Shown: piece after piece, positions 18,571 to 63,097 of the stretch
Numbering within the stretch: position 1 is the stretch's first letter
Layout of the letters: each line of letters starts with the position of its first letter
Source: Candidatus Methylacidiphilales bacterium
GTDB lineage: Bacteria; Pseudomonadota; Gammaproteobacteria; JASGCS01
Length of the DNA stretch: 64,000 bases
Assembly (NCBI GenBank): GCA_030054035.1
Contig: JASGCS010000001.1
Location: 342,280-406,279 of the forward strand
Direction: 5' to 3'
Notes under the pieces: generated by a model
What the model was told of the DNA's origin: nothing
What the model saw: only the letters and a program-made list of their open reading frames with translations
Databases searched by the model: none
Position numbers and translations under genes: made by a program

Positions 18571-19392
18571 ATGTTACATGATAAAGTAATCGTTATCACA
18601 GGTGTTGCAAATCAAAGATCAATTGCCTACGGAGTAGCTCATGCATGCGCTAGACATGGCGCCACACTTATCGTTGTTATTCAAAGTGAAAGATTCAAAT
18701 CAAGGGCTGAAGAATTAATTCTTCAGTGCGGTAAATATCACAATAAAAAACATACAATTTTTATTTGTGACGCTGCTTATGACGATCAATTACAACAATT
18801 AAGTCTTGACATTGCAAGTATTACAGAACGTATTGATGTATTTGTCCATTCTATCGCATTTGCTAATAGAGATGAAATAAAAGGGGCATTTCATGATGTC
18901 ACAACTAGAAGTGGTTTTCTTCTCGCGCATGATATCAGTTCATACACACTTGTAGCATTTTCAAAATTCTTATTACCCCTATTAAAGAAATCTCAATCAG
19001 CAAGTATAATTACAATGACATACTATGGATCTGAAAAAGTTATACCTAACTACAATGTTATGGGCGTGGCCAAAGCTTCACTTGAGGCTTGCGTTCGATA
19101 TCTTGCAGCATCACTTGGTAGTGATGGGGTACGAGTAAATGCCCTCTCACCAGGTCCAATACAAACATTAGCGGCTTCAGGCATTACCGGACTTAGCAAA
19201 ATGATTCAAGCAACAAAAGAAAACTCACCGTTAAAAAAATCACTTACTATTGAAGATGTCGGTAATGTTGCCGTATTTCTAGCCTCCGATCTTTCTCAAG
19301 CAATTAGTGGTGAAATAATTCATGTTGATAATGGATCGCATTGCATGGGAATCAACATCAAAAATGATGACAATAGATCAGATATTAGTTAG
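18571..19392 (+). CDS. fabI: Enoyl-ACP reductase (NADH)
   Basis: Near-colinear to FabI: ITGVANQRSIAYG, HSIAFA, catalytic Tyr-x6-Lys region NYNVMGVAKASLEA, GVRVNALSPGPIQTLAA. The start is set at the ATG at 18571; the track ORF begins at a TTG at 18553. Confidence 0.85.
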   Translation: MLHDKVIVITGVANQRSIAYGVAHACARHGATLIVVIQSERFKSRAEELILQCGKYHNKKHTIFICDAAYDDQLQQLSLDIASITERIDVFVHSIAFANRDEIKGAFHDVTTRSGFLLAHDISSYTLVAFSKFLLPLLKKSQSASIITMTYYGSEKVIPNYNVMGVAKASLEACVRYLAASLGSDGVRVNALSPGPIQTLAASGITGLSKMIQATKENSPLKKSLTIEDVGNVAVFLASDLSQAISGEIIHVDNGSHCMGINIKNDDNRSDIS

Positions 19393-21394
19393 TATTTAAC
19401 AATTTTTCATACTCGGGCTTTAAAACTACCTCCGCGTTATCACGCAAATAATTCCCAAGGGAATCAATACCAACACTTTGAATTAAGTTTTCAAAAACAG
19501 TTATAGATTGTAAGGTGAAAGCAATCTCAGTCTCATCCTTGGTAGGATCTTTTTTATTTCTCAATTTTTCTAAATAATCTTTAGGGTTTTTAATCGTAAA
19601 AATATCTGAAACCCATTGTTCACTTGGCAGACTTATATCATGGTAGTTATAAATCAAAACATCACCTTGTGGTAGGGCAAATTTATAATACTTTGATTTA
19701 TCTCCTTTGGCATTAAGTTGGTAAAGTACATTAAAAAAATCATCTGGTAATTGTAATTGAGGATTGAGTCGATACACAGCAATATCACCAATTTTAATAA
19801 TATTACTACTTAGTATATTTTCAATAATTTTAATTTCTACAGATGGTTGATTTATTTTACTCAGCTTTTCGTCTGCAAGTTTAGATGCGGCTAAAGTAGC
19901 TTTTTCATATTTCCAAGCGACAATTACTTCATTTTTAACCATATCTAATTTAGGAATATACGACGGTGAATAATTATTTATTTGATAAACCATTACCGAA
20001 TCATCAGATAAGGTTACAATTTCACTCATGCCTTGAGGGTTCGTTTTTGCTAAATTAAAAGCCTGTTTTCTTAAAATGTTGTTAGTGAAATGACCGTCCC
20101 CTTTGCTGTAATCCATAGAATTAGTTTTTAATAGATTGCCATTAAATGAAGATGCGATGATTTCTAGATTTTGAGATGTCTTTTGTAGCATTTTTTGTAA
20201 TAAATCTAATTTTTCAGCATAGATATTGCTTTTCCGTTCATCAATCAAAGATAATAAAATTTGTTGTCTCATTTCATCTAGTGGAGCTACTTGCCCATTT
20301 TTAATATTTTCTAAATAAATTAAATGATAACCAAATTGCGACTTTATCACATTACTTATTGGATTTTGTAAAGTTAAAGAGAAAAGTGATTTTTCAAAAT
20401 CAGGATCTGTGTCGCCTTTACCAAGCCAACCAAGATCGCCGCCCATATTTTTAGTTGCGATATCTTCAGATATAGTAGCTGCTATTTTGTTAAATTCAGC
20501 TAACGAATTAGTATTCTTTTTTATGGATTGTAATTTATTAATAACTTCCTCTTCGTTTTTCTCGCTTTTAGGTAAGGTTAATAAAATATGAGCTGCTTTT
20601 CGTTTTTGCACAAGTTCTTGATTGGCAAAATTTATTTTATAAAATTCTTTGATTTCTTCTTCGCTGGGCATTTGAACATTTTTTGTAAGTTCGTCTTTAT
20701 TTAGCACCACATACTTAACATCAAGCGATTCTTTTGTTTTAAATTTTTCAGAATATTTTAAATAGTAATCTTGCAATTCTTTTTCAGAAGGTTCGACATC
20801 AGCAATTAAATTTTTTGCAGAAATAAAGTATAAGGTTGTGTTTCTTTTTTCATTTAATAATTTAATTAAATGTTTAATTTCCCAATTGTTTGGTAATTCT
20901 GATTTGGTTAAAGTTTTTGTAATTTGTTCTTTTTTTATTAAATTTTTATATCGGTTAACAAAAGATTCAATCGTTAGCCCACTTTCAATAATAAAACTGT
21001 TAAATTTTGCATAATCAAATTTTCCATCTGTTTGAAAGTTAGGTATTTTCTCAACTGACTCTTTTAAGTATTCATCGGTAATGTTCATATTAAATTTATC
21101 TGCGGCAAACTCAAATAATAATTTATCCATTAACCCTGCCAACGCTAAGGACTCAAGTTTTTTAGGGTCTTGTAATTCATCAGGAATTTTACCTTGATTG
21201 TTTGAAATAACTTGGGACAATATTTCAGACTGGGTTTCTTTTAAATCAGATAAAGTGATTTTTTTGCCGTTTATTTTTCCAATAATACCCTCTTGAAAGT
21301 TATAGTCAAAATAACCATAAACCCCCCAAAAAGTAAAAGGAATTAATACTATTGTAATTACAAAAATTGAGAAAAATTTTTTCCAGCGTTCCAT
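19385..21394 (-). CDS. ppiD: Periplasmic chaperone / parvulin-type peptidyl-prolyl isomerase PpiD
   Basis: 669 aa, N-terminal membrane anchor, central parvulin-like segment (GGDLGW…FGYHLIYL). Confidence 0.75.
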   Translation of the reverse strand: MERWKKFFSIFVITIVLIPFTFWGVYGYFDYNFQEGIIGKINGKKITLSDLKETQSEILSQVISNNQGKIPDELQDPKKLESLALAGLMDKLLFEFAADKFNMNITDEYLKESVEKIPNFQTDGKFDYAKFNSFIIESGLTIESFVNRYKNLIKKEQITKTLTKSELPNNWEIKHLIKLLNEKRNTTLYFISAKNLIADVEPSEKELQDYYLKYSEKFKTKESLDVKYVVLNKDELTKNVQMPSEEEIKEFYKINFANQELVQKRKAAHILLTLPKSEKNEEEVINKLQSIKKNTNSLAEFNKIAATISEDIATKNMGGDLGWLGKGDTDPDFEKSLFSLTLQNPISNVIKSQFGYHLIYLENIKNGQVAPLDEMRQQILLSLIDERKSNIYAEKLDLLQKMLQKTSQNLEIIASSFNGNLLKTNSMDYSKGDGHFTNNILRKQAFNLAKTNPQGMSEIVTLSDDSVMVYQINNYSPSYIPKLDMVKNEVIVAWKYEKATLAASKLADEKLSKINQPSVEIKIIENILSSNIIKIGDIAVYRLNPQLQLPDDFFNVLYQLNAKGDKSKYYKFALPQGDVLIYNYHDISLPSEQWVSDIFTIKNPKDYLEKLRNKKDPTKDETEIAFTLQSITVFENLIQSVGIDSLGNYLRDNAEVVLKPEYEKLLNTN

Positions 21395-21425
21395 AGTGAT
21401 TTATATTTTACATTAAAATAATCAA

Positions 21426-22057
21426 GTGAATAATCAAATTATAGCTAATACAATCATTGAAGGGAACTACGCCCCTCTCATCAAAGACAATGTAGACACT
21501 GATCAAATTATACCATCTTCGGAAATGAAACTACCCTCTAAACGAGGTCTAGGTATAGGTTTATTTGCAAATCAAAGATACAACAACACTATCACACGTG
21601 ATCCAAATCCCCTTTTTATCCTTAATCAACCTAATTTTCAAGAAATAACTATTTTGGTGTCAGGGTTGAATTTTGGTTGCGGCTCATCAAGGGAGCATGC
21701 AGTATGGGCATTAAAATTTATTTTTCCAAAAACAGTGCTTATTATCTGAAGATCAATGTCTATGGAGATTCTATTTTTACCTACTGTATTGCAAATCTCA
21801 TTCTCCCAATCATTGTTTCGAAAGATGTCGTTTTGCTGTTTTCTGAAAATACAGTAGGTAAAAATAGAATCTCCATAGACATTGATCTTCAGATAATAAG
21901 CACTGTTTTTGGAAAAATAAATTTTAATATAGAAAAAGAAGTGAAAAATAAATTTATTCTGGGTGAAGATTCGATATCAAGTCTCCTCAATAATTTTACA
22001 AGCACCATTGATGAGCATGAAAGAAAAAATAAAATAACTAAACCTTGGTTATTCTAA
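21426..22057 (+). pseudogene. leuD: 3-isopropylmalate dehydratase small subunit, frameshifted
   Basis: ORF 21426..21749 carries the LeuD N-terminal part (DNVDTDQIIP…NFGCGSSREHAVWAL); ORF 21677..22057 in another frame continues with LeuD middle and C-terminus (GIKIY…, ISIDIDLQ…, ILGEDSISSLL…DEHER…KPW). The frame switches around 21705-21720. No leuC adjacent. Confidence 0.7.
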
Positions 22058-22067
22058 TTTCAAGATG

Positions 22068-22144
22068 TGGCGGAGTGGACGGGGCTCGAACCCGCGACCC
22101 CCGGCGTGACAGGCCGGTATTCTAACCAACTGAACTACCACTCC
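22068..22144 (-). tRNA. tRNA-Asp (anticodon GUC)
   Basis: Reverse complement GGAGTGGTAGTTCAGTTGGTTAGAATACCGGCCTGTCACGCCGGGGGTCGCGGGTTCGAGCCCCGTCCACTCCGCCA; cloverleaf and anticodon loop CTGTCAC read by eye. Confidence 0.9.
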
Positions 22145-22148
22145 ATCT

Positions 22149-22223
22149 TGGTGGGTACTGTGGGATTCGAACCTACGACCCCCGCCTTGTAAGGGCGATG
22201 CTCTACCGCTGAGCTAAGCACCC
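22149..22223 (-). tRNA. tRNA-Val (anticodon UAC)
   Basis: Reverse complement GGGTGCTTAGCTCAGCGGTAGAGCATCGCCCTTACAAGGCGGGGGTCGTAGGTTCGAATCCCACAGTACCCACCA; close to enterobacterial tRNA-Val(UAC). Confidence 0.85.
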
Positions 22224-22258
22224 AATATTGGTTTTTAGTTTAGGTATTATATGCGATT

Positions 22259-24682
22259 TTATTGACTTGTATGGAGATTAGAAAAGGTAGAATTTTCATT
22301 TCTATAGTCAGCAGCCTTATTTGTAAGTATCTTGATTTTTTTACCTTCAGTATTAAACAAATGGATAAAAGAGTCCTCGAACCATTGAAGCGGAATAATA
22401 TCAAGTCCTGATTTTATATCATCTGGAATATCTTCAAGCTGATGGGCGTTTTCCGCAGGAATAAGAACTTTTTTAATCTTTGCCCGTTGCGCAGCAAGTA
22501 GCTTTTCACGTAATCCACCTATAGGCAAAATTGATCCTCGTAAAGTTACTTCACCTGTCATAGCCACATCTGAGTATACAGGAATATTTAAAACTGCAGA
22601 GAAAAGCGCAACAGTCATCCCTAAGCCAGCTGATGGACCATCTTTTGGAATTGCACCCTCTGGTACATGGACATGGAAATCATGTTCATTAAAATAATGC
22701 AGTGGGATAGTCTTATCAAAATCATGGATATGTCTTTTAATTATTGTGAGGGCGGTATCTATGGATTCTTTCATAACATTTCCTAATGAACCGGTATATC
22801 GAGTACCACCTCTGCCAAATATTGTTGTCGCTTCAATATGAAGAATATCACCGCCAAACTCCGTCCATGCTAAGCCTGTGACTTGACCAATAATTGAATT
22901 TGGTTTATCAAATTGATACCTATATTTTCTAACACCTAAATATTTTTTAACATCTGATTTTAATAATGTTTTTTTAATTTTATCTTTAAGTTCATCACGC
23001 AAAGATACATCGTTCTGGTGTTCAAAAACATGCTTCCTAGAAATTTTGGCAATTGATCGTTCTAATTGTCGAACACCTGATTCCCTCGTGTAGAACTGTA
23101 TAATCTCATATATGACCTCTTGATGAAGCTCTAGTTCGTTAGCTTGAATTCCATGTAGTTTTTGCTGCTTTGGAATTAAATGGTTATTTGCGATATGAAA
23201 TTTTTCGTGGTCACTATATCCATACAAGTGAATAATCTCCAAACGATCAAGTAGTGGCTTTGGCATATCAAGAGTGTTTGCGGTAGTGATAAAAAGTACT
23301 TCGGAAAGATCGAAAGAAACCTCAGTATAATGATCTACAAACTGTGAATTTTGTTCTGGATCCAACACTTCAAGCAATGCAGATGCTGGATCTCCTCTAA
23401 AATCACTTCCCATCTTATCAATTTCATCAATAAGTATAACTGGATTTTTTACTTTTACTTTTATTAAATTTTGAATAATTCTTCCTGGCATTGAACCTAT
23501 ATAAGTTCTTCTGTGCCCTCGAATTTCTGACTCGTCTCTAACGCCTCCTACCGAAAACTTGATAAATTCCCTGTTTGTTGCCAGTGCGATCGACCTAGCA
23601 AGAGATGTTTTTCCAACTCCTGGAGGACCAACAAAGCATAATATGGATCCTGCAGTTTTATTAGTCCGTTTTTGAACAGCGAGATATTCAAGCACTCTGG
23701 TTTTTAATTCAACTAATGCATAATGCTCACTGTCTAAAATTCTTTTTGCTTTATTCAAATCATTCGATAACTTAGATCTTAATTGCCATGGAAGTTGAAT
23801 AAGATGATGGAGGTACGTCTTTACGACTGAGGCTTCTGGGGACGAGGCTGAAAATGTTTTAAGTCGAGCTAATTCTTTCCTTGCTTTGTCTGACGCTTCT
23901 ACTGACATTTTAGAATCAATAATTTGTTGTTCCAAATCTGTAAAATCTTTACTTTCTTGATACTCATCACTTAGCTCTTTTTGCAATGCCCTAATTTGCT
24001 CATGAATAAAATAATCTTTTTGATTTTTTTCAATTTGGCTAAATATTTTATGTTTAATTTTTTGATCTAAAAGCAATGAGTCGACAGTATTTTTTAATAA
24101 ATCTAATATCATTTCGTACTGCTCTTGAATTGTTTCTATTGAAAGTAGCTCTTGCTTTTGCGAAACATCAACATCAAGTTTAGCTGACACTGTGTTAAGT
24201 AAAACCTCATCGCTATCAATAGACTCCAGCTGGGTTATCAATTGATCATTATTAGCATTTGGAATAATTGTCAATAGATTTTGTAAACTTATTAACAACT
24301 CTCCTCTTTGTGCATCAGTCAGAATTGATCCTGAATCGTGGTGTTTAAATTGACGAGCATTAACATTAAGATAACCAAAATCATACAAATCCTCAATTAG
24401 CATTCTATAATGCCCTTCCAATGTCACTCGATAAGTACCTGTTCCAGACTTAATTACTTTAATTATTGTAGCTAACACACCAACGACATAAATTTCTTCA
24501 AATTGTGGTAACTCAGTTTCTGGATCGGTCTGAAGGCTTACAATTATTGGTCTGTTATCACGCTGTGACTCAAAAATTGATTTTACCGACCTTTCTCTGC
24601 CAACAATTATATCTATAGTTGTATTTGGGAAAAGCACAACGTCTCGCAAGGGTAAATACGGAATATGCAAATAATCAGACAT
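22259..24682 (-). CDS. lon: ATP-dependent protease Lon
   Basis: 807 aa; Walker A GPPGVGKTS, C-terminal protease domain with catalytic Ser (PKDGPSAG); follows clpX. Confidence 0.9.
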   Translation of the reverse strand: MSDYLHIPYLPLRDVVLFPNTTIDIIVGRERSVKSIFESQRDNRPIIVSLQTDPETELPQFEEIYVVGVLATIIKVIKSGTGTYRVTLEGHYRMLIEDLYDFGYLNVNARQFKHHDSGSILTDAQRGELLISLQNLLTIIPNANNDQLITQLESIDSDEVLLNTVSAKLDVDVSQKQELLSIETIQEQYEMILDLLKNTVDSLLLDQKIKHKIFSQIEKNQKDYFIHEQIRALQKELSDEYQESKDFTDLEQQIIDSKMSVEASDKARKELARLKTFSASSPEASVVKTYLHHLIQLPWQLRSKLSNDLNKAKRILDSEHYALVELKTRVLEYLAVQKRTNKTAGSILCFVGPPGVGKTSLARSIALATNREFIKFSVGGVRDESEIRGHRRTYIGSMPGRIIQNLIKVKVKNPVILIDEIDKMGSDFRGDPASALLEVLDPEQNSQFVDHYTEVSFDLSEVLFITTANTLDMPKPLLDRLEIIHLYGYSDHEKFHIANNHLIPKQQKLHGIQANELELHQEVIYEIIQFYTRESGVRQLERSIAKISRKHVFEHQNDVSLRDELKDKIKKTLLKSDVKKYLGVRKYRYQFDKPNSIIGQVTGLAWTEFGGDILHIEATTIFGRGGTRYTGSLGNVMKESIDTALTIIKRHIHDFDKTIPLHYFNEHDFHVHVPEGAIPKDGPSAGLGMTVALFSAVLNIPVYSDVAMTGEVTLRGSILPIGGLREKLLAAQRAKIKKVLIPAENAHQLEDIPDDIKSGLDIIPLQWFEDSFIHLFNTEGKKIKILTNKAADYRNENSTFSNLHTSQ

Positions 24683-24694
24683 TAAATTACTAAT

Positions 24695-26014
24695 TTAAAC
24701 TGCTTTTTTTTCGATTTCATAAATTGAATTATCTTGTTTAAACTCACTATAAAATTGTTGCGGTTTGATTTCATCATGAATACAAAGAGGTTTGATTTCT
24801 TCTAAAACGCATTTTTCATCCACTACAATTTTTGTAGTGCCTTTATCATGTGGAAGATCGTACATTGTATCAAGTAAAATTTTCTCAACTATAGATCGTA
24901 GCCCTCTTGCTCCAGTGCTATTAATAAGGGCTTTTCTAGCAATTGCTATAAGAGCAGACTCTGAAAAATCTAATGTAACGCCATCCATAGAAAATAATTT
25001 TTTAAATTGTCTTACGATAGAATTTTTTGGTTCAATTAGTATTTTTACAAGTGTTGATTCATCAAGCTCATCCAACACAGCAACGACTGGAAGCCTGCCT
25101 ACAAACTCAGGAATTAGGCCATATTTAATTAAGTCATCAGATTGTACATCTTTCATAAAATATATATCTTTATCTGGCATATCAGTATTGTTACTTGTGT
25201 CGTTCGAAATAAATCCAATTCCACTCTTTGAACTTCTCTGCTTGATAATTTTTTCTAAACCAGAAAAAGCTCCGCCACAAATAAATAAAATGTTTTTAGT
25301 ATCAATCTGAATAAACTCTTGATGCGGGTGTTTTCTCCCGCCTTGGGGTGGCACAGAAGACACAGTACCTTCAATTAATTTGAGCAATGCTTGCTGAACC
25401 CCTTCGCCTGAAACATCCCTTGTAATTGATGGATTATCAGATTTTCTAGCAATTTTATCTATTTCATCAATATACACTATGCCTTTTTGTGCCTTCAGTA
25501 CATCGCCATTTGAATTTTGTAAAAGTCGCTGGAGAATATTTTCGACATCTTCACCAACATATCCGGCTTCGGTGAGCGTAGTTGCATCAGCAATCGCAAA
25601 AGGCACATTTAATCTTTTTGCCAATGTTTCAGCTAATAAAGTTTTTCCGGATCCGGTTGGGCCAATAAGTAAAATATTACTTTTACCCAACTCGACATCT
25701 TGTGTGTCCTTGTCGGTTTGATGGTAAAGTCTCTTATAATGATTATAAACACAAACTGCTAAAACACGTTTAGCAAAATCTTGTCCAATAACATAAAGAT
25801 CTAAATACTCTTTTACATCTTTTGGCAAAAAACTTTCAAAGGAAGTGGAGGTGTCTTTACTATTATTAAGCTCTTCGGAAAGTATTTCAGTGCACATAAC
25901 AATACACTCATCACAAATATAAACTTGCGGGCCAGAAATTAGTTTTTTAACCTCTCTTTGAGATTTTCTACAAAACGAGCAAACAAAATGTGTTGATTTA
26001 TTATCAGAATCCAT
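24695..26014 (-). CDS. clpX: ATP-dependent Clp protease ATP-binding subunit ClpX
   Basis: 439 aa; N-terminal zinc-binding CSFC…CDEC, Walker A GPTGSGKT. Confidence 0.9.
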
Positions 26015-26019
26015 ATAGA

Positions 26020-26643
26020 TTATACCGAACCTGCGTCGCCAGAAGCAACTCTAGTGCTCAAAACCTTATCGACAATACCATACGCACAAGCCTCAGTACT
26101 GTTAAGAAAATAATCTCTGTCAGTATCTTGTTCAATTTTTTGAAGAGGTTGTTCAGTATGCTCAGCCAATATAGTATTCAGCACAGCTTTTATTTTAATA
26201 ATTTCTTGGGCATGAATACTAATATCAGAAGCTTGGCCTTGAAAGCCTCCCAAGGGTTGATGGATCATTATTCTGGAATTGGGTAAAGCAAATCTTTTCC
26301 CTTTTTTACCTGACGCTAAAAGCAAAGCTCCCATACTTGCAGCCTGACCAATACATAGTGTGCTGATATCAGGTGAAATAAATTTCATAGTATCATATAT
26401 ACACATACCCGCAGACACCGATCCACCTGGAGAGTTTATATAGAGATAGATATCTTTTTTTGGATTTTCTGATTCCAAAAAAAGCATCTGGGCTACAACT
26501 ACATTCGCAACATAATCATCAATAGGCCCTACTAAAAAAATTAAACGCTCACGTAACAATCTAGAGTAGATATCAAATGCCCTTTCACCTCGTGAGGATT
26601 GCTCTACGACAATTGGAACATACTGTGAAAAAGTTTTATTCAT
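26020..26643 (-). CDS. clpP: ATP-dependent Clp protease proteolytic subunit
   Basis: 207 aa; catalytic Ser region GQAASMGA, His region IMIHQPLGG. Confidence 0.9.
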
Positions 26644-27686
26644 TTATTATTAGTATCTATGAGATCACTTAATTTAACTGGTTTACTGACTATCTTAACT
26701 CTATTAAATATATGGTCTACAAATTCTATTTCAAGGGCAATAGTAAAAAAGTAATTTCTCCAATAATCATTCTGCACTAATTGCCTTATGGCTTTTTCAG
26801 GATCTTGGGTGCTTTGTGCAGTTTGAGATATTAATTTTTTAATAACTTCTTGTTTTGGAATGATGTTAAAATTATTTACTATATGTTTCAAAATCCAGTC
26901 TGACTTTAATCGTTTCTCAATTAAAGTTTTAGTAAAGGAATCCAGTTCAACATGCTTATCACATGGCTCTTCGGCTTTATGAGTATGACCTGCTTTTTCA
27001 TGTAATTCATGTCCTAAACGACGCTCTTCAGTTGTTATTGCTTTAGCTAAGATTGAAGGAGGTAGTGAAAATTGAAATTCGTTAAGTAAAGCTTCAAGAA
27101 TTGATTCTTTATTTTTCTGAAACAATTTAAATTCGACTTCTTGGAGTAACGTTTGCTTAATTGCTAAATCAAATTTTTGCTCGGCGTCATCACCAATAAA
27201 GCCCAATTTTTCAAATGCTATTTGACTTTGATCATTACCATGTTCTTTAATAACTTTTTCTTTCATTGAAGTAAAATCGCTTTGATTTATTGAGTACTCA
27301 AACTTGGTAATTTCTAAGCTTTCTAATGAAAGTAAATTAATTTCGGGTGAAAGTTCATAAAAATAATCTATGCTTAAAATTTTATTTTTTATATCTAGTT
27401 TTGGATTATACATCGGCTGAGTTGCAAGAACAATGTTTTTATTTGAAGCCAAATAATCGCTCCAACATCGTAAGGAAATATCTTTAATTGCTTGATCTTG
27501 TAAGGTTTCGGTATATTTCTTTAGTAATATTTCATCTGGAACTTTACCTTTTCTAAAACCATCAATCGCAACTGTTTGTTTCAAATGGACTAGCTGTTTT
27601 TGCATAGATTTATCAAACTCTTCCCAAGAAACAGAAAATACTACTTCTCTCTCTAGTTGCGATATTTCTTTAACTTCATAACTCAT
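26640..27686 (-). CDS. tig: Trigger factor, apparently lacking the central PPIase domain
   Basis: N-terminal ribosome-binding signature GFRKGKVP present; 348 aa versus about 430 aa in typical bacteria; tig-clpP-clpX-lon synteny. Confidence 0.8.
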
Positions 27687-27699
27687 ATTATTTCCTAGT

Positions 27700-27784
<85 letters not shown>

Positions 27785-27796
27785 TTTAATTCAAAC

Positions 27797-27872
<76 letters not shown>

Positions 27873-27903
27873 ACTTTTTTTTATTTTACCCCTAATTATA
27901 GAA

Positions 27904-27980
27904 TGGGGTGAGCGATGGGGCTCGAACCCACGACCACTGGATCCACAATCCAGAGCTCTACCGACTGAGCTACGCTCACC
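27904..27980 (-). tRNA. tRNA-His (anticodon GUG) with G-1
   Basis: Reverse complement GGTGAGCGTAGCTCAGTCGGTAGAGCTCTGGATTGTGGATCCAGTGGTCGTGGGTTCGAGCCCCATCGCTCACCCCA; extra 5' G typical of tRNA-His. Confidence 0.85.
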
Positions 27981-27995
27981 ATTGTATCAATAGTA

Positions 27996-28071
27996 TGGCG
28001 CGCCCGGCAGGAATCGAACCTGCAACCACCGGCTTAGAAGGCAGGTGCTCTATCCGTTGAGCTACGGACGC
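27996..28071 (-). tRNA. tRNA-Arg (anticodon UCU)
   Basis: Reverse complement GCGTCCGTAGCTCAACGGATAGAGCACCTGCCTTCTAAGCCGGTGGTTGCAGGTTCGATTCCTGCCGGGCGCGCCA; resembles argU-type tRNA. Confidence 0.8.
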
Positions 28072-28079
28072 ATGTATTA

Positions 28080-28156
28080 TGGTCGGGGCAGAGAGATTCG
28101 AACTCCCGACCCTCTGCTCCCAAAGCAGATGCGCTACCAGACTGCGCTATGCCCCG
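28080..28156 (-). tRNA. tRNA-Pro (anticodon UGG)
   Basis: Reverse complement CGGGGCATAGCGCAGTCTGGTAGCGCATCTGCTTTGGGAGCAGAGGGTCGGGAGTTCGAATCTCTCTGCCCCGACCA. Confidence 0.85.
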
Positions 28157-28182
28157 AGTATAATATCGTACGATATTATACT

Positions 28183-29082
28183 ATGCCTAAAAATAAATCA
28201 ATTGATAGCATTATGCTTGATGGAAATTTTTGTTCAGAGCAGATTCTAAAGGAACTACGCACTTGGATTAAACAATTACTTTTAAATGGCATTAGATTGC
28301 CATCTTTAACTGTGTTTCTAATTGGTGATAATGACGCGAGTAAAATTTATGTGCAGAAAAAAATACAAGCTTGCAACTCATTAGGTATTCAATGTAATTT
28401 AAAACAATTTTCAAATAATATTAAAATTGAAGAAATATTATCAGAAATTGATTATTGCAACACTGACCAAAACACTGATGGAATACTTGTACAATTACCT
28501 TTGCCAAGCCACTTATCCACACTTGAAATCTGTTCACGAATTTCTCCCTCTAAAGATATAGATGGTTTTAACCCTCAAAATGTTGGGAGGTTGGCATTAC
28601 GATCTCCGCAGTTAAGACCCTGTACCCCCAAAGGAGTGATGGCACTTTTAGATTTCTATAAAATTTCACCTGAATCAAAACATGCAGTAGTGGTTGGAGT
28701 ATCAAATCTAGTTGGAAGACCGCTTGCTTTGGAGCTTTTATTAAAGGGCGCTACAGTTACTTGCTGCCATAGATTAACCAATAAGTTAGAAGAGCATGTC
28801 AAAAAGGCTGATTTGCTTTGCGTTGCAACTGGCAAAAGAAATATTATTGATTGTGAGTGGATTCCAAGGCAATGCACAGTAATAGATATTGGCATAAATA
28901 GAGATAGTAGCGGTAAAATTGTTGGCGATCTTGATCAAGAGAAATTGGTAGGAAATGTATACGCATACACACCTGTACCTGGAGGGATTGGGCCAATGAC
29001 GGTAACAATGGTGTTAGTAAACACACTCGAGGCACATAGCACACACCTAAATTTACAGTTTATATCTCCAACTAGTACCTAA
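28183..29082 (+). CDS. folD: Bifunctional methylenetetrahydrofolate dehydrogenase / methenyl-THF cyclohydrolase
   Basis: FolD motifs (DGILVQLPLP, DVDGFNPQNVGRL, PCTPKG, VGRPLALELL, TPVPGGIGPMTV). Start set at the ATG at 28183; the track extension to 28045 overlaps two tRNA genes. Confidence 0.85.
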   Translation: MPKNKSIDSIMLDGNFCSEQILKELRTWIKQLLLNGIRLPSLTVFLIGDNDASKIYVQKKIQACNSLGIQCNLKQFSNNIKIEEILSEIDYCNTDQNTDGILVQLPLPSHLSTLEICSRISPSKDIDGFNPQNVGRLALRSPQLRPCTPKGVMALLDFYKISPESKHAVVVGVSNLVGRPLALELLLKGATVTCCHRLTNKLEEHVKKADLLCVATGKRNIIDCEWIPRQCTVIDIGINRDSSGKIVGDLDQEKLVGNVYAYTPVPGGIGPMTVTMVLVNTLEAHSTHLNLQFISPTST

Positions 29083-58815: not shown

Positions 58816-61800
58816 TTATAGTTTTCTTGGTTTACAAGTGTCACTGACTGATAAGGCTCGGCATGTAGCATACGATCCAGGAATAGTAGTCGTGATAGGA
58901 ATATGTAGCAATAATGCTCTCCTTCTTATGGTGAAAGAATCAGCAATAGATTGTCTGCCTTCCGTAGTATTAATAATCAGGTCAATTACTCCAGAATCAA
59001 GCAATTCCAAAATATGCGGTGAGCCTTGACTCACCTTGTTAATTTCTATACAAGGAATTCCAGCTTCATTAATTATTTGAAAAGTGCCTTTAGTTGCATA
59101 AATTATATAATTATTGGCATGTAACAATTTAGCTAATGGCACACAGTGAGATTTAGTGCTATTACTAAGACTGATAAACGCATTCCCTGATTTTTTTAAT
59201 TTTACACCTGCAGCAAGTTGGGCAAGTGCAAACGCCTCTTCAAAGGTTTCTCCACGACCCATCACTTCTCCCGTTGATTTCATTTCAGGACCTAATAAAA
59301 TATCGGAGGAGTTAAATTTAATAAATGGAAATATAGATTCTTTAACGCAGTACAATTTCTGCTGGGAAACCCCGTCAATAATTGATGTAAGGTCCTTTAG
59401 CTTTTTTCCTCCCATAATAAAAGATGCGTATTTAGCCAGTGGGTGTCCCGTACTCTTTGAGACAAAAGGTATAGATCGAGAAGCTCTGGGGTTTACCTCT
59501 AATAAATAGATTTGAGAATCTTTTAAAGCAAACTGAATATTTACAAGTCCAATCGCTTTAATTGAACGAGCTATCAAAGTAGCTTGATTGCGTAACTCTT
59601 GTTGTGTTTCAATAGGTAAAGAAAATGGAGGTATGGAACAAGCAGAATCTCCAGAATGCACACCAGCACTTTCAATATGCTGCATTATTGCAGGAATAAA
59701 AACCTCTTCCCCATCAGTAACTAAATCAATATCTATTTCGATAGCGTCTGAAAGAAATCTATCTAAAAGTAAAGGTTTGTCTGAAGCTATTCTAAAAGCA
59801 TTTCTAGCAAAAATTTCCAAGTCTTCGATACTATAAGCAATTTCCATTGCTCTACCACCTAAGACATATGATGGTCTTACCAACAAAGGAAAGCCAACAA
59901 TCTCTGATCCTTTTAGCGCTTCTTCTATTGTGACAGCAGTAGTATTTACAGGTTGAAGTAACCCTATCGAGTTTATTAATTTTTGAAACAACTTCCTGTC
60001 TTCGCACATATCAATTGTTTCACTGCCTGAACCTAGAATAGAGATTCCGTGATCAGCTAACTGTTGTACTAGTTTTAGAGGAGTCTGCCCGCCAAATTGG
60101 ACGACTATTCCTAATGGATTCTCTAAACAAACCAAAGAATAAATATGTTCAAAACTAATTGGCTCAAAATATAATGCATTTGATAAATCATAATCCGTTG
60201 AAACAGTCTCTGGATTACAATTTACCATAATTGTATAATAACCAAGTTGTTTAAAGGCCATTAATGCATGGACACAACAATAATCAAATTCAATTCCTTG
60301 TCCAATTCTATTTGGACCACATCCAAGTATTATTACTTTAGGTTGATTTATTTTAAACTGCAACTCGTTCTTTCCAAAATATGAAGAATAACAATAATTT
60401 GTTTCAGTATCAAATTCAGCCGCACAGGTATCAATTCGCTTATAAACGGGAATTATTTCAAATTTAACTCGTAGCTCTCTGATTATTGAAGGTGAAGTAT
60501 TCAACAGTGTCGCTATTCGCGTATCGGTTAATCCAGATTGCTTAGCCTTGGAAAGCAAATCTTGAGTAATTTCCGATAGAGCACAAGCTGATAGTTTAAT
60601 TTCTAAATCTATTACATCTTTAATATTTCTTAGAAACCAAGGGTCTATAGAAGTTAGTGAGTAAATGGTTTCAAGATCAATCCCTCTCCTGATCGACTCA
60701 GCTAAATACCATAATCTTTGCGATGATGGTCTGCTAATTTTTTCAAATAATACTTCATTTGAAACGATTTCATTTTGTTCGATAGGGCTTTGCAACCCAT
60801 CTCTATCTATTTCTAAACTTGTAATTGCTTTAAGTAATGATTCATTAAAAGTTGTGCCAATTGCCATCACTTCACCAACTGATTTCATTTGTGTACCCAA
60901 CTCATCAGCAGTGTTAGAAAATTTTTCAAAATTAAACCTTGGTATTTTTGTAACGACATAATCAATAGTTGGCTCAAAAGAAGCGGGTATCTCACCAATG
61001 GTAAGATTGTTTTTTATTTCAATTAAACTATATCCCACTGCCAATTTAGCGGCAATTCGTGCTATAGGATAGCCTGTTGCTTTTGAAGCTAGCGCAGATG
61101 ATCTCGAAACTCTGGGATTCATTTCAATTACGAACTGTTCGCCTGTTTTCGGTTGGACGGCAAACTGAACATTAGAACCACCTGACTCAATACCAATTTT
61201 TTTCATTATCTCTATCGTTGAGGTTCTCATTAGTTGATATTCTTTATCTGTTAAAGTTTGGATAGGAGCAACAGTAATTGAGTCTCCAGTATGAGTTCCC
61301 ATAGGATCAAAATTTTCTATTGAACATACTATAATGCAATTATTTTCTTTATCACGGATTGCTTCAAGTTCAAATTCCTTATAGCCAATCATTGATTGTT
61401 CAATGAGCACTTGTTTTGTTTGAGATAAAAATAAACCATGCTTTACAATTTCAAGTAATTGTTGCTGATTAAATGCTATACCACCTCCAGAACCTCCTAA
61501 TGTATATGATGGTCTAATGATTATTGGGTAACTAAATTCCTTAGAAAAATCTAATGCTTCCTTCACAGAATTGACGATTCTTGACTCAGGACAACGAAGT
61601 CCTAATTCACTCATCGCTTGCTTAAATAAATTTCTATCTTCAGCCATTTTTATGGACTGAGATTTAACCCCAATCATCTCAATCTGTAAATCATTAAGAA
61701 TTCCTTCCTCATCTAATTTCAACGCAAGATTAAGGGCAGTTTGACCACCCATGGTAGGGAGCAATGCGTCTGGTTTTTCAATTTCTAATATTTTTTTTAC

Positions 61801-62019
61801 GTGATTAAAATCTAGGGGTTCTAAATAAATACTATCAGTAGTAGTGAGATCTGTCATTATTGTGGCAGGATTAGAGTTAATTAAAGAAACCTTAAAACCA
61901 TCTTCCTTGAGTGCTCTGCAAGCTTGGACGCCTGAATAATCAAACTCTGCGGCTTGTCCTATAACAATTGGTCCAGAACCAATTATTAGAATGTGATTAA
62001 TATCATTTCGTCTTGGCAT
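58816..62019 (-). CDS. carB: Carbamoyl-phosphate synthase large subunit
   Basis: Duplicated ATP-grasp halves; [22 protein letters not shown]-terminus. Start set at Met 62019; the track start is 62028. Confidence 0.95.
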
Positions 62020-63097
62020 TTTTGTCAATTAAACTCTTAAATTCATTAAAAATATATTTAAAATCATGGGGGCCTGGATTGGCTTCAGGGTGACCTTGGA
62101 TAGCTATTAAAGGGGCTGTAGCTGAAACAAATCCTTGCAATGAGCCATCAAACAAAGATCTGTGAGTTGCAATTAGCGATGATGTGAGGGTTGTCTCCAG
62201 AATCTCAAAACTATGATTTTGACTCGAAATTACACTTTGGTGAGTTCTTAAATCTAAAATTGGATGGTTAATACCGTGATGTCCATATTTCATTTTTTTT
62301 GATTTAGCTCCTAATGCAAGTGCAATAATCTGAAAACCCAAACAAATTCCAAGCAAGGGTAATTTATGCGAGACACAATAATGCACTATAGGATGAACAT
62401 AGTTACATGGTTCTGGGTCCCCGGGTCCGTTTGATAAAACTACCCCAACTGGATCATTGCTAAGCAATTCATCTAATGTTGTTTTTGCAGGAAAACAAAC
62501 TACTTTGAATCCGAGAGTTGCTAAAAAATGTAATATTGATTTTTTGACCCCCAAATCTATAACAGCAATAATTTTTTTATTCGTAGACTCAGGGTTAAAA
62601 TAATATTTTTCCTTAGTTGTTACTTGAGAAGCTAAATCTAAACCTGATAATCCTTTATAATTCCTTAACGCATCATACGCGTCGTCTAAATCAGAATTAG
62701 TACGACAGTCCAAGCAAGCTCTTAAAGAACCATGAGTTTTAATTAATTTAACTAAAAATCTGGTATCTACGCCTTCTACAGCTGGAATGGAATTCTTGAT
62801 AAGAAAAGAGGATAGGCTCGTTAAACATCTCCAACTACTAGGTTGATATGTGTACTTGTGTACCAACAAGCCGCTATTATGAATTATATTTGATTCATTA
62901 TCTTCTAAATTAATACCTGTATTACCAATATGGGGATAAGAAAATACAATGAACTGGCCCTTATATGATGGGTCAGTGCAAACCTCTTGATACCCGCTCA
63001 TAGCTGTATTAAACACTAATTCACCTAGAGCCATCACGGGAGCACCAAAGCTGATGCACTCTATGATAATATTCTGATCAATGATTAATTTTGCCAT
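62003..63097 (-). CDS. carA: Carbamoyl-phosphate synthase small subunit (glutamine amidotransferase)
   Basis: GATase class I catalytic triad context (GICLGFQ, HPE); N-terminus aligns from Met 63097 (MAKLIIDQ…[13 protein letters not shown]); track start is 63118. Confidence 0.9.

Follow-up and report, generated by a model that had tools for sequence, protein, structure and literature searches.

The 64-kb stretch of DNA analysed here (the window, in whose numbering all coordinates are given) carries a tig gene whose product, a trigger factor (TF) of 348 amino acids (aa), consists of the N-terminal and C-terminal domains and has no peptidyl-prolyl isomerase (PPIase) domain between them. The gene, identified from the list of open reading frames (ORFs), Pfam and TIGR00115, lies on the reverse strand at 26640–27686 and begins with ATG, exactly where a previous sequence-only reading of the window had put a 348-aa tig. 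A Shine–Dalgarno sequence, AGGAA, stands 6 nucleotides (nt) upstream of the start codon, and the TGA stop codon overlaps the ATG of clpP by 4 nt (ATGA). The exact protein is held at NCBI as MDI9347233.1.

Downstream on the same strand follow clpP (26020–26643), clpX (24695–26014; 439 aa, with the zinc-binding domain PF06689 zf-C4_ClpX) and a full-length lon (22259–24682; 807 aa), while ppiD (19385–21394; 669 aa, parvulin domain kept) completes the canonical gammaproteobacterial neighbourhood tig-clpP-clpX-lon-(hupB)-ppiD. The neighbouring proteins are full length and have their usual domains (Lon 807, ClpX 439, FtsH 631, BamA 785, CarB 1070, IleRS 921 and PpiD 669 aa), so that the loss of a domain from tig is specific and not part of a general shrinkage of proteins.

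Absence of the PPIase Domain

The sequence-only reading had described a ribosome-binding domain at the N-terminus with the signature GFRKGKVP, a C-terminal region colinear with the chaperone arm domain, an almost direct connection between the two and no recognisable PPIase domain in the centre, and our searches agree with it throughout. Pfam assigns residues 1–142 to Trigger_N (E = 3.7e-25) and residues 176–326 to Trigger_C (E = 1.5e-10); FKBP_C was unmatched in the 348-aa protein even at a threshold of E ≤ 10, and a 432-aa Pasteurella TF used as positive control gave FKBP_C at 2.1e-19. In a phmmer search against the PDB, residues 5–149 align to residues 5–148 of E. coli TF and residues 166–343 to its residues 260–428, which leaves 16 residues where the E. 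coli protein has 111 (149–259). The net loss is 95 residues, and the E. coli PPIase domain spans 96 (residues 150–245; PMC4626277). The junction quoted in the sequence-only reading is correct.

Alignment with eight full-length TFs by MAFFT (alignment A1) opens a single clean gap of about 100 columns. The distance between the columns aligned to residues 130 and 185 of the window TF tells the same: it amounts to 56 residues here vs 147–150 in full-length TFs. Directly after the junction, the motif QIAFEKLGF corresponds to the helix (D/A)EF(A/I)K(K/R)(L/F)G that comes after the PPIase domain, or head, in full-length TFs, so the excision coincides with the domain boundaries. We also built a TF-specific PPIase hidden Markov model (HMM) from TF heads, which matches 273 of 300 collected proteins and leaves the 348-aa TF unmatched. 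A divergent FKBP domain, sought around residues 115–200 with Pfam, this HMM and structure prediction, was not found there.

On the reverse strand, the protein can thus be divided as follows. Residues 1–149 (27240–27686; phmmer and structure model) form the ribosome-binding N-domain together with the linker, which connects to the PPIase head in E. coli TF, and residues 43–50 therein (27537–27560; alignment A3) are the TF signature loop GFRKGKVP, which docks on uL23 (PMC8185961). The junction that takes the place of E. coli residues 149–259 covers residues 150–165 (27192–27239; phmmer gap, A1 and model), and residues 166–348 (26643–27191; phmmer, Trigger_C and model) make up the C-terminal chaperone domain with its 'body and arms'. 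A His/Cys-rich insertion near the tip of arm 1 (about residues 223–249, 26940–27020; alignment A2) is specific to the window TF and absent from the relatives described below; its predicted local distance difference test (pLDDT) score is lower than that of the rest of the model, at 77–85, and it might bind metal.

Since the head is an autonomous fold, it is conceivable that the TF PPIase domain persists as a separate gene alongside the N+C protein. We regard such a fission as highly improbable: with filters off, the TF-PPIase HMM finds no match in a six-frame translation of the 64-kb window (best E 1.4), and nothing alike is encoded beside tig in the loci of the relatives.

Structure Model

Absence of the head is equally apparent in three dimensions. 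The AlphaFold model calculated from a 135-sequence alignment (A3) reaches a pLDDT of 94.9 and a predicted template modelling (pTM) score of 0.87, compared with a pLDDT of only 37.7 for a single-sequence run. In this model, residues 1–130 fold into the alpha/beta N-domain and helix 135–148 represents the linker (pLDDT >90), followed by a short helix (154–160), a turn and the long first helix of the C-domain (168–203). Residues 135–203 are modelled with helices as their only secondary structure and show no beta-rich FKBP fold, and the C-domain (166–348) is all-helical with pLDDT mostly above 93.

The closest PDB entry found by Foldseek is E. coli TF, with 2vrh_A at the top (E 2.9e-19; TM-score 0.79 normalised to the query and 0.65 normalised to the target) and 1w26_A giving 0.76 and 0.63, respectively. 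That the target-normalised value falls below the query-normalised one fits a target with an additional head domain that stays uncovered. Isolated N-domain structures such as 1oms are matched as well (target-normalised TM-score 0.83–0.89). Sequence identity to E. coli TF in the structural alignment is about 16 %, and the likeness to solved TFs is limited to the N and C domains. The comparison with E. coli TF that the sequence-only reading had proposed therefore ends in two matching folds and a missing head.

Relatives Sharing the Locus

Relatives of the window TF were collected by an exhaustive HMMER search of 1.84 billion representatives combined with a cluster look-up; word-index protein searches missed both of the headless relatives P0026 and P0175. 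P0026 (316 aa) comes from run SRR25758461, while P0175 (325 aa) is encoded on a 1.82-Mb ENA contig (ERZ25072151 contig_34, locus L085) and recurs, split by a frameshift into P0032 and P0042, in a second ENA assembly (ERZ25072485 contig_13, locus L082). Identity to the window TF is 31–34 % for P0026 and P0175, which share 48 % between themselves, and all are without the head. They have the junction pattern K[IV][IL]KE…E[LM]GF in common with the window TF (alignment A2), and the gene order cysS, folD, tRNAs, tig, clpP, clpX, lon, Aconitase_C, ppiD, SDR, SBP_bac_5 is common to the window and its relatives. ClpX is 68–70 % identical between the window and the relatives and 68–78 % identical among the clade; as the same headless tig is found despite this distance, the loss predates the divergence of these genomes. 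The clade is monophyletic in 198 of 200 bootstraps of the tree described below. A metagenome scan with alignment A4 returned full-length TFs only (22–31 % identity) and no further members of the clade.

The deletion is not an assembly artefact. An identical tig lies on a separately assembled Logan contig (run SRR23378605), the in-frame junction is conserved in the orthologues from three other samples, and the limits of the deletion fall about one residue or less from those of a structural domain. An error in assembly or binning that collapsed about 285 bp of a normal tig might be suspected from the apparently wrong NCBI taxonomic label of the source metagenome-assembled genome (MAG) and from the protein cluster, which is a singleton, yet against the identical gene and the conserved junction we consider it very improbable. 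The assembly deletion that the sequence-only reading had named as a possible refutation has thus not materialised. Comparing the two ENA assemblies at the same locus, tig, lon and SDR are each in two pieces in L082 and intact in L085, so that the splits look like indel errors in one assembly and not like biology.

Several further features of the locus deserve mention. Five tRNA genes (Pro, Arg, His, Lys and Leu; 27700–28156, reverse strand) lie directly upstream of tig, and the CCA end of tRNA-Leu(tag) directly adjoins the AGGAA of tig. As only 13 nt, AGGAA included, separate tRNA-Leu from the ATG, co-transcription of the tRNA cluster with tig is suggested. The ORF of FolD as called (28045–29082, forward strand, 345 aa) begins at a GTG within the tRNA cluster; its true start is probably an internal Met near residue 47, because the Pfam match starts at residue 58. 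After lon, hupB is absent in the window and in the clade relatives, and the interval 21395–22258 holds tRNA-Val, tRNA-Asp and an Aconitase_C gene instead. Elsewhere, hupB stands between lon and ppiD (Candidatus Methylumidiphilus locus) or right after lon (loci L084, L086 and L088). The Aconitase_C gene, which encodes a LeuD-like small subunit (21426–22057, forward strand), is broken over two frames into overlapping ORFs of 107 and 126 aa. An intact 217-aa orthologue occupies the same place in L085, with 64 % identity over the first 88 residues before the match shifts frame, and the broken copy in the window is either a pseudogene or the result of an indel error.

Lineage Placement

At NCBI the source MAG is labelled 'Methylacidiphilales bacterium' (Verrucomicrobiota). 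The best matches of ClpX (61–66 %), TF and CarB all belong to Gamma- or Betaproteobacteria, those of CarB (58816–62028) being Nitrosacidococcus, Methylococcus, Methylomonas and Pseudomonas at 54–57 %. Likewise, the order tig-clpP-clpX-lon-ppiD is that of the gammaproteobacterial loci compared here. Both observations conflict with the Methylacidiphilales label, which looks wrong on the strength of these protein matches. With identities to the nearest Gammaproteobacteria of about 61 % for ClpX and 56 % for CarB, we treat the organism as a probable long-branch, AT-rich gammaproteobacterium of uncertain order.

Constraint and Rate of Divergence

The window TF keeps every column that is invariant in the alignment of 135 TFs (G43, R45, G47 and P209), as well as the columns conserved to at least 90 % (L11, F44, K48, P50, P91, E111, P114, E216, A256 and E319). 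The rate of divergence was estimated with the tig and clpX genes of 81 loci, by a regression of TF identity, calculated from N+C columns only, on ClpX identity for 2775 pairs of full-length TFs. This comparison was chosen over the ratio of nonsynonymous to synonymous substitutions (dN/dS) because synonymous sites are saturated at 31–48 % amino-acid identity. Pairs within the window clade deviate from the TF/ClpX trend by −0.6 to 0.0 standard deviations, and all pairs of PPIase-less TFs by −0.6 to +1.6. The window TF is only 20–27 % identical to its best full-length relatives; as its divergence follows the trend, this low identity reflects the fast clock of the lineage and not relaxed selection on tig.

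These values bear on the alternative that the gene is a decaying remnant, in which the domain went as one step of pseudogenisation, within a genome that is eroding, and which no longer yields a functional chaperone. The lineage is indeed fast, as the low identities of TF and of CarB show, a frameshift breaks the Aconitase_C gene nearby, and hupB does not stand where it usually does. However, at least three lineages, with ClpX identity down to 68–78 %, have tig in an intact frame, the residues invariant among TFs are retained together with the ribosome-binding signature, and the TF/ClpX divergence ratio is normal. Both domains are modelled with confidence, and the Shine–Dalgarno sequence and the coupling to clpP are maintained, making decay quite improbable. 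Judged by these sequence comparisons, the headless tig does not look like a decaying gene.

Recurrence in Other Lineages

Outside the window clade, Trigger_N and Trigger_C are the only domains in P0038 (384 aa), P0104 (342 aa), P0138 (330 aa), P0152 (363 aa; present in an NCBI and in a Logan assembly), P0163 (374 aa; L088:6001-7125) and the pair P0057/P0178 (370 and 356 aa). The cluster of P0057 has 41 members, including PZN79668.1 of Candidatus Methylumidiphilus alinenensis, and the natural PPIase-less TFs include the product of the tig of GCA_964647825.1. P0057, P0152 and P0163 are all found at tig-clpP-clpX-lon-hupB. Defining a two-domain architecture as Trigger_N followed by Trigger_C with a gap of no more than about 50 residues, we find it in the window TF and 8 others, and for 6 of the PPIase-less TFs other than that of the window the locus context was established. 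We propose to group these proteins as natural two-domain (N+C) trigger factors, which is our own grouping and not a curated family; the window TF belongs to it by its tig locus, its intact frame and its conservation among diverged relatives.

Over the N+C columns, each headless TF outside the clade is nearer to full-length TFs than to other headless ones, with P0038, for instance, being 53 % identical to a 453-aa TF. Neighbour-joining of 173 TFs (337 N+C columns, capped Kimura-corrected distances, 200 bootstraps) places the headless TFs in seven separate groups in 197 of the 200 bootstraps. On the assumption that the domain was never regained, the nearest 150 representatives account for no fewer than seven losses, each independent of the others. 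The junctions differ as well: the window clade, P0038, P0104, P0138 and P0163 have tight ones, with 56–61 residues between the fixed columns, and 82–84 residues lie between the same columns in the Methylumidiphilus proteins and P0152, whose spacer is about 25 residues longer.

As a background we sampled ClpX-anchored GTDB loci of distant Proteobacteria (ClpX 61–66 %), a set that does not include the window genome and its clade. None of the 77 of these loci with a readable tig has a headless one, and tig sits directly upstream of clpP-clpX in all 77. The headless architecture is rare.

Genome reduction was rejected as a sufficient cause, as one relative lies on a 1.82-Mb contig and the same loss is found in Candidatus Methylumidiphilus, a free-living methanotroph. 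The headless loci outside the clade have a GC content of 40–49 %, compared with 33.5 % for the window and 37–38 % for the clade relatives. The sequence-only reading had taken the window TF as an example of domain-level reduction in a core chaperone, of which the natural loss stands. The loss is nevertheless clade-wide, old and not private to this genome, and 'genome reduction' does not suffice as an explanation, since the losses that we count include some in genomes that are not reduced.

P0038 and P0163, which represent two independent losses, end in long His/Asp-rich tails (…HSHEHHDHDHDHAHCGHDHSHDHDDHSHS and …HDAHGHDHEHVHGPDCDHDHDH, respectively). They are similar to the metal-binding tail found in SlyD, an FKBP chaperone. 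Two further proteins may carry heads in the course of degenerating: in P0169 (400 aa), what is missing seems to be just the C-terminal part of the PPIase domain plus the helix after it, and P0089 (441 aa), which is related to P0038 and P0163, both headless, matches the TF-PPIase HMM only weakly (7e-5).

The slot of the gene also bears on whether the window TF could be a specialised TF paralogue, with a housekeeping three-domain tig elsewhere in the genome. TF paralogues that have lost domains do exist (PceT/RdhT), only 64 kb of a contig of at least 476 kb are in view, and the name given to the protein at NCBI is 'trigger factor family protein' instead of 'trigger factor' because it scores under the TIGR00115 cutoff. 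The gene nevertheless occupies the canonical tig slot upstream of clpP-clpX-lon, overlapping clpP, in agreement with every one of the sampled proteobacterial loci, and three clade relatives as well as three independent PPIase-less cases are found in the same slot. Moreover, the TF matches, obtained in a search of limited sensitivity, include no second TF of the same MAG. We therefore consider a paralogue improbable.

Interpretation

The explanation that we favour, with a probability of roughly 85 %, is that the window carries the orthologous tig, not a paralogue, from which the PPIase head was cleanly lost in an ancestor, and that the remaining two-domain TF most likely is a working chaperone. 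An ancestor of this fast-evolving, AT-rich gammaproteobacterial lineage would have excised the FKBP-type head almost exactly at the domain boundaries. As the head is an insertion with adjacent ends, its removal would leave the linker helix joined by a short turn to the first helix of the C-domain. In E. coli TF the N-domain binds uL23 and the C-domain is the main chaperone module (PMC8185961). Judging from the conserved signature and the predicted fold, the GFRKGKVP loop most likely still lets the remaining TF dock on uL23. Its C-domain arms would arch over the exit tunnel, and the protein would serve nascent chains as an ATP-independent holdase/foldase. Having no catalytic domain, it is expected to be devoid of peptidyl-prolyl isomerase activity and of the surface of the head that contacts substrates and ClpX. 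Part of the contact of the ClpX zinc-binding domain (ZBD) is on the P-domain of TF (PMC7804408). The expected consequences would be one substrate site fewer and possibly a weaker coupling to ClpXP.

Several points weigh against this explanation. A view of 64 kb leaves room for a second full-length tig or a compensating stand-alone PPIase, and with 135.9 bits the window TF stays below the TIGR00115 equivalog cutoff of 180.2. The Logan assembly was probably made from the same reads as the MAG and therefore rules out an assembler error, not a problem at read level, a gap that the orthologues from other samples cover. Full-length TFs make up the bulk of alignment A3 and so bias the model in favour of a TF fold, and the regression of TF on ClpX identity is an extrapolation close to the lower limit of its range (ClpX identity 0.57–0.70). 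Finally, what we say about the function of the window TF, and of natural PPIase-less TFs generally, is inference.

One may go further and read the recurrent loss of the head as a selected change of chaperone mode instead of neutral erosion. Headless TFs would then represent a distinct class with faster client release, less folding delay and an altered hand-over to ClpXP, and Gammaproteobacteria, free-living methanotrophs among them, would have evolved it on at least seven occasions. We consider this unlikely, while noting that, if true, a comparison of the lineages would reveal the in vivo purpose of the PPIase domain, which is dispensable in E. coli.

In papers found by a full-text literature search, no natural TF without the PPIase domain is described. 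Headless TFs are present in the databases but pass unremarked there, under the names 'trigger factor family protein' or 'hypothetical protein'. TF itself and an engineered headless equivalent are known; new is the natural, conserved and recurrent two-domain form. The three-domain layout of TF is treated as universal, and the natural headless lineages depart from it. As deletion of the PPIase domain has little effect in E. coli, its role in vivo is still unclear, and the headless lineages offer evolutionary replicates for asking what compensates for it, be it other PPIases, proline usage, translation speed or the load on DnaK and ClpXP. In a practical respect, genome surveys of chaperone content may score tig as missing, since headless TFs fall below the equivalog threshold. 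The natural losses repeat a known laboratory deletion, and our understanding of how TF works is unchanged; they amount to a modest surprise for chaperone specialists and a usable natural experiment, with no new mechanism.

Comparison with Known Systems

Canonical TF, as represented by E. coli Tig (1W26, 2VRH), and the window TF are alike in the N-domain with its GFRxGxxP motif, the linker, the two-arm C-domain and the slot upstream of clpP-clpX-lon. They differ in the FKBP-type PPIase head, which E. coli TF has at residues 150–245 and the window TF has lost.

The same two-domain architecture is found in the engineered E. coli variants TF-NC and TF-deltaPPIase. E. coli TF engineered to lack the PPIase domain was reportedly studied by Kramer (2004) and Merz (2006). 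Such constructs were made in the laboratory, and the E. coli that carries them is normal in other respects, whereas the deletion in the window is natural, ancient and fixed in its clade, with remaining domains that have long co-evolved. PPIase-deleted E. coli constructs retain the main chaperone function (PMC8185961), and a working TF without the PPIase domain is attributed to Gupta et al. 2010 where that study is cited in PMC4626277. The natural PPIase-less TFs outside the clade arose independently of the window TF, have differing junctions and lie in less AT-rich loci.

The helical arm module of TF also acts as a chaperone unit in other domain combinations, namely in Mycoplasma MPN555, SurA, PpiD and the PceT/RdhT class. 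PceT, for example, is without the TF N-domain. The C-domain of the window TF is matched by MPN555 (1ZXJ) in Foldseek at E of about 3e-4, and PMC2956729 discusses how PpiD and SurA resemble the C-domain of TF. In contrast to these proteins, which have no ribosome-binding N-domain or are periplasmic, the window TF keeps both its N-domain and the tig locus.

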